Shown piece after piece: positions 7,901-63,906 of a DNA stretch of 64,000 nt (position 1 is its first letter; each line of letters starts with the position of its first letter). Source of the DNA: Eledone cirrhosa (Eukaryota). A program made the translations under genes and the position numbers. The DNA is taken from NCBI GenBank assembly GCA_964016885.1, contig OZ024745.1, positions 125,240,001 to 125,304,000 of the forward strand. The letters run 5' to 3'. Under the pieces are notes generated by a model, which did not search any database, had not been told where the DNA came from, and saw nothing but the letters and a program-made list of their open reading frames with translations.

Positions 7901-8768
7901 ATATATATATAAGAACGAGTAGGACCCCGACGGCTGAGCTCAAGCCGTTTCAACGGCTAATTCTACCCTACTGCTGCTATGCCCTCTGACCACCTCCCGC
8001 ACACACAGACACACAACACACCTTCAATTACCATTCTACCCTACTGCTGCTATGCCCTCTGACCACCTCCCCGAACACACAGACACACAGCACTCCTTCT
8101 GCCTTGACCCTCTTACCACTTCCTGTTCCGCGCGCACCCCACATCTCCCCTCTTCCGACCAATCTCTTCACGGATTACACATATGTGAACCTTGATCCAG
8201 AGAATCCACCGCATCCAAGGATTTTACTCAGCATTCCACCACATCTTTTTACGGAATTACCTTTATGACTCACCCCACACACACACCCAAACAAATTTTT
8301 TTTCCCACACGCCACCTACATCCACAACACGCATAAACACCACACACACACACACGTGCGTACCACCACATATTTACACATTCAGCCTCCGGAATCCTCT
8401 CCCCCACCCCTCTATCCACACACGCACACGCATTCCGACCTACACCCCACCCCACACACACACCTTCCTGAACACGCAACCCCGTTCTTCCCCCAACCCT
8501 TGCTTTCACATGCACACACACGTACACCTACACACACACACCACCTTCAGCCCTCCCCGCTCGGACACCCCGTCTCCCTCTCCCCATCCACCCACCACCA
8601 CCCCTACACGCCCCACAACCTTCCACCACCTGTTTTACCCCATTTTAATTTTATTTTGATCATGCCTTTATTTTTAATTTCATTTGCACCGTTTCCTCTC
8701 ACCCCCTTTTTGCTATATGTCTCTCCACCACTCCCCTACACACCCTTTCAACTCTCTTCCCACACACT

Positions 8769-8838
8769 TTTCACCCGAAGAAGGGCTTATGCCCGAAACG
8801 TCGTTCCCCACCATCACCCCACTCTCAAGAGCGTGAAA
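8769..8838 (+). ncRNA. Minimal hammerhead-like motif of the Penelope pseudo-LTR type
   Basis: tttcac-CCGAAGA-a gggc ttat gccc-GAA-acgt-C-(30 nt)-gtgaaa, followed by aataaa and the (TA)n at ~8894. A C/A-rich UTR-like tract (8260-8760) precedes it. Confidence 0.6.
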
Positions 8839-8983
8839 TTAATAAACCTTTGTTTGTACTGCCTCTCTGTTTTGTTCCCGTTCAATTTTTCACTATATAT
8901 ATATATATATATATATATATATATATATATATATATATATATATATATATATATATATATATATATATATAGGAACCAGTAAG

Positions 8984-9077
8984 ACCCCGACGGCTGAGCT
9001 CAAGCCGTTTCGACGGCTAATTCTGGACTAAATGAAAATTTATCCTGGTATTTAAATAGCCGAGCTTCTCAAGGGGT
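8984..9077 (-). ncRNA. Hammerhead ribozyme, U3-A8 variant (mirror copy)
   Basis: Reverse complement of 11042-11135. Confidence 0.7.
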
Positions 9078-9799
9078 AATTCCATATATGGTCAAGGTGA
9101 TTGTCAAAAGTCAGTAGTAATTCTGTGATTGCAAATTAGTAGGGGAGATGGTGGCTAAACCTGCCAGTAGGAGAAAAAGGGGAGGAGGTGGAGTAGACCC
9201 AATCATGCGTTGGTAGTGCCAGCTACAGCTGGGCATGAGGTCAAAGAAGATACTGGGGAGGGGGAGGGGGAGGAAGTCGGAACGGTAGGTAGAACAATGA
9301 GGGGTAAAAATATATATATGAAGGAAAAAATACTGAGAGTGATGAAAAGCGAATAAGTGTAAAGAAAAATAAAGTAAAGCAAGTTCTACGACCTAAGTCT
9401 CTAGCTATTGTTAGGCTAGATAAATAAATAAATAAAGAAAGAAATAAATAAAGAAAGAAATAAAGAAATAACGAAATAAGTAAATAAACTAGGTGGGACG
9501 GAATAGGCAAGGACCCTTTTAAGAGGTATAAGTACGTAAATCATACGGTGACGGGTCAACAAATGGGGCCAAAAAGCTAAAGAAACTACCACGAAATAAA
9601 TAATAAAGGTGTCTAACCCGGCACAATGCCAGCAACCTAGTGCAGCAAAGTAAACTAGTACGAGATAATAATTCTGAGTCCCGAAAAAAAAATATACTAA
9701 TGCTAACTCAAAAAGATCTTATACAAGCTACATGAAAGTTCGTACGGAGTAAAGGTAGAATACGGAAAAATAAATTCAGAATCCCCCCCACCTTTATAA

Positions 9800-9925
9800 A
9801 TGGTGTTTTCGACGGACCAACTCCTAAACAAGAAAGATGAACTGGTTACTGCATGTAAACATAGATTGCGTAGGACTTACCTCGCCCTCAAACCCCATAA
9901 TGACCCGGGGGGGGGGGGGGGGTAG
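9800..9925 (+). pseudogene. C-terminal fragment of a Penelope-like GIY-YIG ORF
   Basis: MVFSTDQLLNKKDELVTACKHRLRRTYL matches LLNRKSEIFSSCPH (~34377) and LNKISEAISACKH (~500, minus strand). Confidence 0.7.
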
Positions 9926-11041
9926 ATTAGGGCTATAACACCCCACTTGCCGATTTTGCAATGGGTAACCCTTGCTTGCCAAGGGAGACGTAAGATCTTC
10001 GTTTTATTCTTTTATCGCTTCCTTTATGTCCTTCTTCCCCCACCCCTCCTTAGTCCTTCTACCCCAGTTCTTCTTCTTTGTCGGCGTCTTTTCTCGCCCA
10101 CCCGAGGCTGCCCTTTGGCCCCTTGTAGCCTCAGTACCCCCACCCCCTCCCCTAGTCTATGATAGATTTGGCGGACTCCGCATTTTATAGCAGTTGTGTT
10201 AGACCTCGGATACTTTCCCCCTTTTTCCGACCGCTCCCACTATTTTCCGTGCCTTCTATATTTCTTAGTGGCACTTATGCCGTATTTTCTCGTTTCAGTA
10301 TTTCTTTCATCTCTTTTCTTTTGGCGGGGTGGATTCTGAATTTATTTTTCCGTATTATACCTTTACTTCGTACGAACTTTCATGTAGCTGTATAAGATAT
10401 TTTAGAGTTAGCATTAGTATATATTTTTTTCGGGACTCAGAATTATTATCTCGTACTAGTTTACTTTGCTGCACTGGGTGGTTGCTGGCATTGTGCCCGG
10501 GATAGAAACCTTTATTATTTATTTCGTGGTAGTTTCTTTAGCTTTTTGGCCCCATTTGTTGACCCGTCACCGTATGATTTACGTGCTTATACCTCTTAAA
10601 AGGGTCCTTGCCTATTCCGTCCCACCTAGTTTATTTACTTATTTCGTTATTTCTTTATTTCTTTCTTTATTTATTTATTTCTTTATTTATTTATTTATCT
10701 AGCCTAACAATAGCTAGAGACTTAGGTCGTAGAACTTGCTTTACTTTTTTTTTTCTTTACACTTATTCGCTTTTCGTCACTCTCAGTATTTTTTCTTTCA
10801 TATATATATTTTTACCCCTCATTGTTCTACCTACCGTTCCGACTTCCTCCCCCTCCCCCTCCCCAGTATCTTCTTTGACCTCATGCCCAGCTGTAGCTGG
10901 CACTACCAACGCATGATTGGGTCTACTCCACCCCCTCCCCTTTTTCTCCTACTGGCAGGTTTAGCCACCATCTCCCCTACTAATTTGCAATCACAGAATT
11001 ACTACTGACTTTTGACAATCACCTTGACCATATATGGAATT

Positions 11042-61413: not shown

Positions 61414-62032
61414 AGTATCTCTTGAGAAATTGTATGTTTCTTTATAGATTAGACTTATGACATTCTTCTATGTCACCTGTTGAAGTTTTTACAGAAATAG
61501 TCGTCTATCCTTCCAGTTGTACTAATTAGAAAGTGATTTTACAAGACATCTATTAACTGCCATATTGTATTTAATTCAATGGCTAATACAATCTAAGTTT
61601 AACACTTTTCAGTCCGATTCTACATTATTTTAAAGATATTTTGAAAATGCTATGTTGATTATCATCACGTTATTGTCATTTTTATAATGAGACATTTTGC
61701 CAAGCTTATTATAAGCTATTTGATGTTCTGTCTGTAGATCACAGTCGCACAGTATTCTTGCATTGTCATTTTCTAACAGTAATTCAATTCATTGTATTCA
61801 TTCCTTACACGTGTGGACTTGTGCCAAAGAATTATATCAGTTGACTTATTGTTATGGCGTGATATCACTGCAATACAATACTTATCTCGCTGCATTGATA
61901 CATGCAGAGTTTATCTTTCATTTATGTTTCTCTGTTAAAAGTTCTCTACATGAAATTTACAATGCCTAGCAGTGTTATTCTCTGTGGGTTATGTATTTGC
62001 GTTCGTAATTATCATTATTATTATTATTTTCA

Positions 62033-62618
62033 AGGTGGTTTGGCAGTAATCGGTAGAGCACATACACCATGCTTTGCAGCACAGAGTTCTGGCCCTTTGC
62101 GGTCTGAGTTCAAATCTTGTCGAGGTTAATTTTGCCTTTCATCTTTACGGGGTCGATAAAATAAAGTACCAGTAATGCACTGGGATAATTGCTGGCCTTG
62201 CGCCAAAATTAAAAACAATTATTATTCGTTTAAAGTGCGGTGGATTGGCAGTATTGCTAGAGCGTCAGACACCATGCTTTGCAGCATAGAGTTATGGCCT
62301 TTTAGGTTCTGAGTTCAAATCTCTCCGATGTTAGCTTTGATTTTCATCCTTACGAGGTCAATAAAATAAAGCGCCAGCAATGCATTGGGGTAATTGCCAA
62401 AAGTAGAATCAATTAATATTATTTTTGTATTGACCGGTGGATTGGCAGTATCGGTAGAGGGTTGGACGCCATGCTTTGCAGCACAGTTACGTCCCTTTAC
62501 GGACTGAGTTCAAATCCCGCCGAGGTTAACTTTGCCTTTCATCCTTACGGGGTCGATAAAATAAAGTAGCAGTAATATACTGGGATAATTGCTGGCCTTG
62601 TGCCAAAAAGTTGAAACA
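62033..62618 (+). mobile_element. Three tandem SINEs (62033-62217, 62237-62410, 62436-62618)
   Basis: Consensus matches with differing divergence. Confidence 0.9.
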
Positions 62619-63595
62619 ATTAATTTTGTATTGGCCGTCGGACTGAGAAGGTTAATTTTCAAGATTTTGCATTGAATTAATTATTGTAGTTTTTGGAGAC
62701 AAAGCGTTCATAAGATATCCGTCTTTTTCCCGTGTAAAGGTGACCCCACAATATTTGGGCTTTTCGGCCCGAATATTTGAACTTTATTATTTTTTTTTAA
62801 AATATATTTTCCTTAAAAAAAAACATGGACGAGACACACACCCTCAAGTTAAGTCACAGCAACTTAAACGTCGAGCGGAGTGATACCGCCCCTCCACAAC
62901 CATTACAAACACCAGCACAAACAACAAAATCAATGACAATAACAATACCAACAACAGTGAAAACACTAATGAGAACAAAAATGACAACAACACCAACAAC
63001 AGCAGTAACAGCGACAAAAACACCAACTTGAACAACAACATTATGCATATATGGAATACACATTCACACACAGATATATATATTCATATATATATATATA
63101 TATATATATATATATAAATGGAATAGAATGAAACGAAATTTCATGTCTGACTCTTAGTACGGCACTTACTTAAATGTAAGTATGCATGTATGTATACGTA
63201 CATGCATATATGTATACAGACTACAGTAGTATGTATATACATACATGCACACATATATATATGCACGTATCGGTTTACCGAACATTTATTATAAACAAAC
63301 AGCCCAAATTACGCCGTACAGTGTTTATATATATTTATTATTATTATAGATATTTATTAAAATAACAGATTAAAGTTTAAACAAAGAATCGCTGCTTTCA
63401 CCCTTAACGGGATCTTCTGAAACTAACAAAGTCAATATATATATAAATTTTGAATATTTGTTGGTTGTATACCAATACCTCAGTATGCAGATTAGAGCAC
63501 TCGACGAGATGCGCAGGTTGGTTTGGTTACTCCGGAGTAATGTAAAATAAACTAAAATAAATAAGTCAAATATTTAAAATTTGGCTTCGTTTATT

Positions 63596-63650
63596 ACTGC
63601 TATATATATTTCGGTTACAGCCACCTTTGGCTGTGACCTCTTCAGGCAGT
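63596..63650 (-). ncRNA. Canonical type I hammerhead ribozyme
   Basis: actgc-CTGAAGA-ggt c acagcca aagg tggctgt a acc-GAA-atatatat-A-gcagt followed by aataaa. Confidence 0.88.
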
Positions 63651-63803
63651 CCGAATTAGTGTGGTAGAGACGAGTACACATGTTGTTGAGGTGTTTAACT
63701 TTGTCAATACTCTGATATGCCCAGTTCCTGGTTGGGTTATTATAAATATATATATATATATATATATATATATATATATATATATATATATATATATATA
63801 TAT

Positions 63804-63906
63804 ATAGGAACCAGTAAGACCCCGACAGCTGAGCTCAAGCCATTTCGACATGAGTACTTTGGTGTGACATGGTCCACCTTGTATCTTACCACATGCCCTT
63901 TGTTAT
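63804..63906. mobile_element. Internally deleted member of the gaccccgacggc HHR-pLTR family
   Basis: aggaaccagtaagaccccgacagctgagctcaagccatttcgac is fused to the tail agtactttggtg...cttaccacatgccctttgtta, between TA tracts. Confidence 0.8.

Follow-up and report, generated by a model that had tools for sequence, protein, structure and literature searches.

Inverted arms with a fixed end-point in six insertions of a Penelope-like element family of Eledone cirrhosa, and a possible origin by twin priming

Introduction

Insertions of Penelope-like elements (PLEs) that encode an endonuclease (EN+ PLEs) have a standard anatomy, in which a 5'-truncated copy lies next to an inverted, likewise 5'-truncated copy, with a tail at one end only and palindromes at the inverted junction; a hammerhead ribozyme is located in the pseudo-long terminal repeat (pLTR), and (TA)n tracts serve as targets (PMC8557442, PMC3846280). 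Insertions of this kind occur at six loci of a single PLE family within a stretch of 64,000 nucleotides of the Eledone cirrhosa genome (contig OZ024745.1, positions 125,240,001 to 125,304,000; hereafter the window). In all six the inverted arm reaches the same end-point in the element, close to a predicted hammerhead cleavage site. Both the anatomy of the six loci and fold-back synthesis as its explanation have already been described in print (PMC8557442, PMC3846280). The family differs from canonical EN+ PLEs in its tail, which measures 79 nucleotides (nt) against 30-40 nt (PMC8557442, PMC3846280), in the absence from the window of a direct-repeat pLTR and of a full open reading frame (ORF), and in having two loci with non-overlapping halves and two joined to unrelated elements.

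The protein of PAc (Poseidon, Anolis carolinensis) nicks and extends both target strands in vitro; synthesis starts at two sites inside the RNA, one at each boundary of the tail, and the template RNA is uncleaved (PMC11167929). Two internal starts bounding the tail, an uncleaved hammerhead template and an AT-rich target are common to PAc and the present family. Unlike in PAc, one of the two sites here lies at the modelled base of helix I, just 17 nt away from the predicted cut, each site has 2-3 nt of TA homology to the target, and the inverted arm always uses the inner site. Inverted arms are not discussed in the main text and three text supplements of the PAc paper; the word 'inverted' occurs once in the text, for a blocking dT, and nowhere in the supplements (PMC11167929). 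Twin priming of LINE-1 offers a mechanistic analogy only: both target ends are primed, the inversion is head-to-head, the inner junction shows short microhomology, and two different reverse transcription products are occasionally joined (PMC11702581). The second priming site of LINE-1 is variable, lies next to the first cDNA end and is associated with a deletion or duplication of 1-10 bp (PMC11702581), whereas here the second site is fixed, the arm duplicates up to 821 nt and there is no poly(A). No paper applying twin priming to PLEs or describing the tail motif of this family was found in a literature search that left most subscription journals outside. A 2026 preprint on retrozymes (10.64898/2026.07.22.740005) has no bearing on the question.

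The Hydra clade, which comprises PLEs with a C-terminal endonuclease, is defined by a CxCX5C motif, the lack of CCHH, a CxxC/CxH motif, (TA)n targets and canonical hammerheads (PMC8557442). Targeting of (TA)n and an ORF end of the form L-N-x-x-x-E-x4-C-x-H are shared with this clade (PMC8557442); the C3-G8 core and short loop II of its hammerheads contrast with the U3-A8 core and 37-nt loop II found here. U3-A8 cores and a palindromic loop 3 have been described for PLE hammerheads, and the minimal hammerhead of the Cercyon PLE (Schistosoma) resembles the present one in its U3-A8 covariant core, its palindromic loop 3 and its location in the pLTR (PMC4209133). It differs from the one described here, which has a full 6-bp helix III, a long loop II, an imperfect helix II base and an extended helix I.

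Six Insertions with a Common Inverted End-Point

The window is AT-rich (~34% GC). Besides many (TA)n tracts it contains a number of PLE remnants, among them GIY-YIG pieces at 33347-34276 and 52944-53375. The six loci of the family, designated A to F, each carry an inverted arm (Table 1); positions in the element are numbered relative to the predicted cleavage nucleotide C17, which is 11130 in copy B. A preliminary description of this DNA had reported a motif at several sites and read it as the antisense 3' half of a U3-A8 hammerhead. All of the sites are real. Six matches have three mismatches or fewer (7923, 8983, 11102-11136 minus, 18499, 31056, and 31114-31148 minus; 0 in 100 shuffles), and the copies at 31921 and 63818, which carry five mismatches each, are found both in a BLAST search using copy B and with an nhmmer profile. 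That profile, built from these same copies, gave no further copy with an E-value better than 1.4. No shorter, overlooked copies were found by BLAST, by nhmmer or by a scan of 218 TA-tract junctions, the last of which is not exhaustive (the known E, F-tail and C-tail ends escaped it). Eight flanks compared with one another show no similarity (best local score 28), and because the flanks are unrelated the six loci are taken as separate insertions. Their inner junctions differ, and between loci there are 2-19 differences over 43 nt.

The last element base at the arm end is +17 in A, B, D, E, and F, and +16/+17 in C. It is followed by 2-3 nt (TA or TAT) common to element and target, and in all six loci one particular TAT of the element marks the transition from arm to (TA)n. 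This end lies 17 nt 3' of the predicted cleavage site and 12-14 nt beyond the 5-bp inner helix I, the distance reported previously, and the scatter of arm end-points that had been named as the contrary outcome was not seen at the six loci of the window. If any of the 11 TA dinucleotides downstream of the cleavage site could have served, a common arm end has a chance probability of 6e-6; if only the three TAT sites could, the value is 0.004. The fixed inverted end-point is therefore confirmed as an observation. Every arm (6/6) runs through an intact GUC cleavage site, which indicates that the template RNA was uncleaved.

Arm lengths in A to F are 53, 821, 52-53, 56, 50, and 43 nt. The earlier range of ~45 to ~820 bp is correct, but the distribution is bimodal, with five arms of 43-56 nt and one of 821 nt, and forms two classes instead of a continuum. 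The long arm of B passes 53 TAT/ATA and 18 TATA/ATAT sites and yet ends at +17, so microhomology with the target does not by itself choose the site and a specific signal is needed. A tail or a piece of one is present at one end in 5/6 loci and never on the arm. Its full length is 79 nt in B and 80 nt in D, in keeping with the ~80 nt first described, and the reported ending, (c/t)gtta followed by (TA)n, is found at +96 in four loci (B, C, D, and F); the description does not extend to E, where the tail adjoins non-TA sequence, or to A, which has no tail. Tracts of (TA)n thus adjoin 6/6 arm ends and 4/6 opposite ends. Locus D is a palindrome, with -40..+96 set against -38..+17, and E is a diverged palindrome.

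The inner ends of the arms also cluster, at -35 in A and C, at -38/-40 in D, and at the same TCCAG in E (-38 by motif, -32 ungapped). In post-hoc simulations with three non-uniform length models, P is 1e-4 to 0.016 for 4/6 ends within 4 nt and 4e-4 to 0.05 for 4/6 within 6 nt; the ungapped reading of E needs 7 nt. The clustering is real-looking but modest. It could be caused by an RNA 5' end, a stop of the reverse transcriptase (RT) or a splice-like site. Candidates include a modelled RT stall at the weak loop-II hairpin, in which -38..-36 are paired and -35 is unpaired, and a 3' splice-like site, TTTCATTTAG followed by TCCAG, with its boundary at -39/-38. An initiator-like TCATTT at -46 is a further candidate.

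Table 1. Features of the six loci and of two adjoining elements. Positions are those of the window, strand gives the RNA sense, and signed numbers are relative to C17.
Feature	Position	Strand	Remarks
Locus A, inverted arm	7912..7964	-	-35..+17; adjoins (TA)n 7873-7911
Locus B, inverted arm	8972..9792	-	-807..+17; 821 nt, 97.3% identical to sense copy
Locus B, sense copy, 5'-truncated	9793..11226	+	-1337..+96; ends at (TA)n
Locus B, ORF C-terminal end	9800..9922	+	LLNKKDELVTACKH; like end of Hydra-type GIY-YIG endonucleases (weak match)
Locus B, predicted type I hammerhead	11036..11147	+	U3-A8 core, C17 at 11130; inspection and constrained fold
Locus B, tail	11148..11226	+	79 nt, +18..+96; between both fixed ends
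Locus C, inverted arm	18489..18540	-	-35..+16/17
Locus C, tail piece	18536..18557	+	only last ~22 nt of tail; shares only few junction bases with arm
Locus D, sense copy	30965..31102	-	-40..+96; full tail at (TA)n
Locus D, inverted arm	31104..31159	+	-38..+17; palindrome centre ctgga-ctc-tccag
Locus E, sense copy with tail	31832..31959	-	~75% to B; runs into element Z without TA tract
Locus E, inverted arm	31961..32010	+	to +17; palindrome centre ctgga-a-tccag
Locus F, inverted arm	63807..63849	-	-25..+17
Locus F, tail piece	63850..63903	+	last ~55 nt of tail; no overlap with arm
Element Y, unrelated	7960..8893	+	joined to arm A via 5-nt overlap ATTCT; ends at (TA)n 8894-8971
Element Z, unrelated	31205..31831	-	same sense as E; ends at short TA run

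A Predicted Hammerhead in the Terminal Repeat

As had been proposed, the motif is antisense hammerhead sequence; it covers helix III and the 3' strand of helix I. A full core (U3 U4 G5 A6 G7 A8 A9 ... G12 A13 A14 A15.1 ... GUC) survives only in copy B, where the three predicted helices are also found. Helix II is imperfect and surrounds the 37-nt loop II, while helix III consists of 6 bp with a palindromic GAGCUC loop. In helix I a 6-nt bulge separates the inner 5 bp from an outer stretch of 6 bp whose closing pair is -94:+17, a placement that rests on one copy, since the 5' strand of the extended helix is present in B alone. In this model the probability of being unpaired is 0.01-0.16 at +17 and 0.88-1.0 at +18, so that pairing in extended helix I would finish with the fixed arm end and +18 would be the first unpaired base. 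The hammerhead call is based on inspection and folding. Rfam returned no hammerhead at gathering score over the whole window (0 hits), and at E<=10 over 7900-11400 its 17 matches were all far below gathering score, with no ribozyme among them. The label of a U3-A8 hammerhead for the family is nevertheless a reasonable one for the predicted structure. A helix III look-alike in a Chara Chlamys consensus was judged incidental.

A Possible Mechanism of Integration

The reading favoured here, with a probability of roughly 0.6, is that both strands of a cut (TA)n tract prime reverse transcription on uncleaved RNA from two fixed sites 79 nt apart. The GIY-YIG endonuclease would nick both strands of (TA)n. 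One target 3' end would then pair with UA at +97/98 and copy the tail, and the other would pair with UA at +18/19, modelled as the first unpaired bases after extended helix I, and copy the ribozyme region. The two cDNAs would stop independently of each other, in many cases close to the TCCAG motif that lies ~35-40 nt upstream of the cleavage site, at either an RNA 5' end or a strong stop, and their 3' ends would be joined over 0-5 nt of microhomology. The joined product would be a palindrome (D, E), a spaced inverted repeat (B) or an inversion accompanied by a deletion (C, F), and the length of the tail would be the distance between the two start sites.

Several features seen in the sequence form the basis of this model, namely the fixed +17 and +96 ends, the 2-3 nt of TA microhomology, the intact cleavage site, the head-to-head geometry and the non-overlapping halves of C and F. 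At both ends of an insertion the sequence can be read as antisense cDNA extended from a 3' end in (TA)n, beginning at +96 on one side and at +17 on the other. Locus C has an arm from -35 and locus F one from -25, both to +17, and in neither does it overlap the sense piece (+75 or ~+43 to +96); the arm copies sequence that is missing from the other half and hence is no fold-back copy of it, unless a deletion followed later. Twin priming with end-joining combines this geometry with the in-vitro data on PAc (PMC11167929). A second family in the window with an arm and a ~60-nt tail (38368-38759; see below) may also be counted in its favour.

Fold-back is the main alternative, possible though rather unlikely, in which a single cDNA starts from the tail end and, having stopped, folds back to serve as its own template, after which the endonuclease cuts the hairpin at the TAT at +18 and joins it to the other target end; A, C, and F would then be later one-sided deletions of unstable palindromes. 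A single stop explains the palindromes of D and E with their centres of 1-3 nt, the arms share subfamily variants with their own sense copy, and A and C break within 3 nt of the hairpin tip of D. Self-priming is the published reading of PLE palindromes, and microhomology deletions of PLE copies are likewise on record (PMC3846280), as is EN-mediated resolution of the tail (PMC8557442). This account requires an extra deletion in 3/6 loci and also a cut specific to +18, although the B arm offers many better TA runs; in vitro, both strands were extended from RNA at two sites bounding the tail (PMC11167929). The preliminary description had proposed that second-strand or fold-back synthesis starts at a defined site near the ribozyme cut. 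A defined end-point throughout the family stands and does bear on mechanism; it lies, however, 17 nt 3' of the cut, and the arms run on through GUC. In fold-back, moreover, +17 would be the stop; for it to be a start, a second cDNA would have to be primed by the other strand and templated by RNA. Simple fold-back is also contradicted by C and F, again barring a subsequent deletion.

That the hammerhead cut itself sets the arm end, which would then be the terminus of a self-cleaved RNA, is very improbable. In its favour, no more than 17 nt separate the fixed end from the predicted cut, and B has a complete core, but all six arms span the uncut site, and their crossing of C17 largely refutes this explanation. 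No copy limited to +1..+17 was seen among the 218 TA-tract junctions, where all junctions of this kind were known arms, and mutants of the hammerhead left PAc insertion products unchanged (PMC11167929). The loci might also have arisen from a single ancestral locus by duplication, or be artefacts of assembly or amplification (fold-back reads). Long inverted repeats can be artefacts, and the outer 215 nt of B are identical in both arms; an origin of this sort is highly unlikely in view of the unrelated flanks, the different inner junctions, the divergence between loci over the 43 nt and the 22 differing columns between the B arms.

Comparison of the arms with the sense copies is compatible with both twin priming and fold-back. 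Over the 43-nt core each arm is nearest to its own sense copy (0 differences in B, 2 in D, 9 in E), which fits one source element per event and fits fold-back as well. The differences between the two B arms (8972-9792 versus 10323-11147) are unevenly placed, with 12/19 events in the inner quarter (p 5e-4) and none in the outer 215 nt, and 10/16 substitutions are transversions. The uneven placement leans slightly towards two template molecules, the other options being conversion or assembly polishing.

A number of points weigh against twin priming. D and E are near-perfect palindromes with the same centre motif, for which one snap-back needs one stop instead of two, and A, C, and F may have been hairpins like D from which one side was lost later. 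PAc shows no strand preference in its start site and no homology between RNA and target (PMC11167929), whereas here sites and ends are paired and share 2-3 nt. The sample consists of six loci with no full-length copy, no RT and no direct-repeat pLTR, and none of the six has a readable target-site duplication. On the structural side, the 5' strand of extended helix I is known from a single copy, the constrained hammerhead fold (-28.2 kcal/mol) is 1.6 above the free minimum (-29.8 kcal/mol), and neither the ribozyme region nor the tail folds better than shuffles (z -0.3 to -0.9). With only six loci, fold-back with later deletions keeps an appreciable probability.

An extended version of the twin-priming model is, as a whole, unlikely. 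It would make PLE integration an obligate twin priming by a two-RNA particle, with one hard-wired start site per target strand (the helix I base and the tail end), with the GAGCUC loops pairing the RNAs and with a tail motif common to Hydra-type elements as a landing site for the protein. A pLTR-initiated RNA with its 5' end near TCCAG would yield ~55-nt caps that close the insertions of other families. The modelled RNA dimer through the palindromic GAGCUC loop has -30.7 kcal/mol, compared with -7.1 kcal/mol for the monomer.

Composite Loci

Two of the loci are composite, A with element Y through the 5-nt overlap and E with element Z without a TA remnant. Element Y is C/A-rich and has a minimal hammerhead-like motif at 8775-8802; the 5-nt overlap assumes that the repeat unit of Y gives its upstream context. 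Element Z is interrupted by a SINE-like repeat (short interspersed element) at 31244-31376. Pfam gave no match for two frames of Z or one 92-amino-acid (aa) frame of Y, and both elements may be PLEs, judging from their termini only. The composites may reflect cross-family joining, nested insertion with target deletion, or later deletion. By eye, hammerhead-like 3' ends of further unrelated elements lie on TA tracts beside B and F (11369-11700 and 63480-63735, minus strand), a nested use of these tracts.

Family Affiliation

The longest copy, B, starts within the last ~45 codons of the ORF, and none of the six copies reaches the RT. The ORF end of B shows CxH after the conserved N of the endonuclease (LLNKKDELVTACKH), a short motif with weak statistics. 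An endonuclease profile was made with an 84-aa piece of the neighbouring endonuclease as query, from 78 long-enough sequences among the best 150 matches listed; CxCx5C is present in 129/150 of these best matches. Searched against 2800 window peptides, the profile ranked two Hydra-type remnants at the top (E 1e-35); a piece from the downstream part of one of these came next, then a second GIY-YIG, and in fifth place the B ORF end (profile positions 117-141, C-terminal, E 0.067). Pfam gave no match for the 41-aa ORF end of B, and a protein search with it found no relative, which is weak evidence. A Hydra-like origin of the endonuclease remnant in B is suggestive only.

The region of the Hydra RT and linker motifs (CxCX5C, no CCHH, RWK, DKT) is missing from every one of the six copies; the neighbouring element at 33347-34481 does carry CxCX5C. 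In File S2 of PMC8557442, 26/26 Hydra rows have a C3-G8 core and a short loop II, and because this family has a U3-A8 core and a 37-nt loop II it is regarded as Hydra-like and is not filed as Hydra. By eye, a short CTCT...GAGCACT-type motif like that in the tails of B, D, and E lies near an end (3' of the hammerhead or at the 5' end) in 4/6 Hydra consensus sequences (File S7 of PMC8557442). A degenerate scan for the tail motif gave four matches in the window (B, D, E, and one unrelated), which is not significant (shuffle mean 1.4, maximum 5), and the tail hairpin has one compensatory pair, matched by 175/500 shuffles. No same-family tandem with a direct-repeat pLTR occurs in the window, where all copies are short; the feature is optional in PLEs.

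Other Elements in the Window

One insertion of the same layout belongs to a different family. At 38368-38759 an inverted arm at (TA)n is followed by a sense copy with a ~60-nt tail, and the 3' end resembles the ends at 5681 and 31205. An inverted-repeat insertion at 32237-32981 has a hammerhead-like motif at 32826 and an internal partial duplication, and both of its ends stop at the same base (no tail). Nested inverted repeats at 2681-3720 surround a hammerhead-like motif at 3568, the left end extending ~13 nt beyond the right.

Three endonuclease remnants were noted. A Hydra-type PLE remnant at 33347-36771 (plus strand) has a CxCX5C linker, GIY-YIG (Pfam E 9e-4), one in-frame stop, a long 3' untranslated region (UTR) and a canonical hammerhead at 36587-36618, and ends at (TA)n 153 nt past the cut. 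A second Hydra-type endonuclease remnant, frameshifted, lies at 443-854 (minus strand) and has a 70% nucleotide match to the ORF end of B. The PLE-like remnant at 52944-53773 (minus strand) has a clear GIY-YIG (Pfam E 2e-9) and seems to belong to a different clade.

A ~190-nt SINE-like repeat occurs in about 20-25 copies over 13741-62632, some of them tandem or head-to-head (41988-42303, 62016-62645). ARAGORN found no tRNA gene in this repeat, which presumably resembles the tRNA-derived SINEs of cephalopods. In the 3' UTR of B, ~55 nt at 10470-10527 are like the 3' end of this repeat and have a mirror in 8972-9792; their presence in both B arms indicates that they were in the template. At 23114-24730 (plus strand) an ORF end containing a CCHC-like motif is present twice in tandem (80% identity); it presumably resembles the C-terminus of a long interspersed element (LINE). 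A direct tandem duplication of 560 nt with 96.8% identity lies at 50885-52011.

Significance

The steps after first-strand priming in PLEs were left unresolved by Craig 2021 (PMC8557442) and Frangieh 2024 (PMC11167929). The present family is ordinary in kind, and what distinguishes it is that the tail is longer, the ribozyme atypical and two of the copies informative through their non-overlapping halves. The non-overlapping halves of C and F provide a cheap genomic test against fold-back, and their value lies in this test and not in a new kind of element. Caps that close the insertion of another PLE family (A with Y, E with Z), if true, would speak against the view that families do not cross-mobilise. 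Twin priming from two sites, if true, would provide a single rule for the tail, the inversion and the palindromes of PLE insertions.

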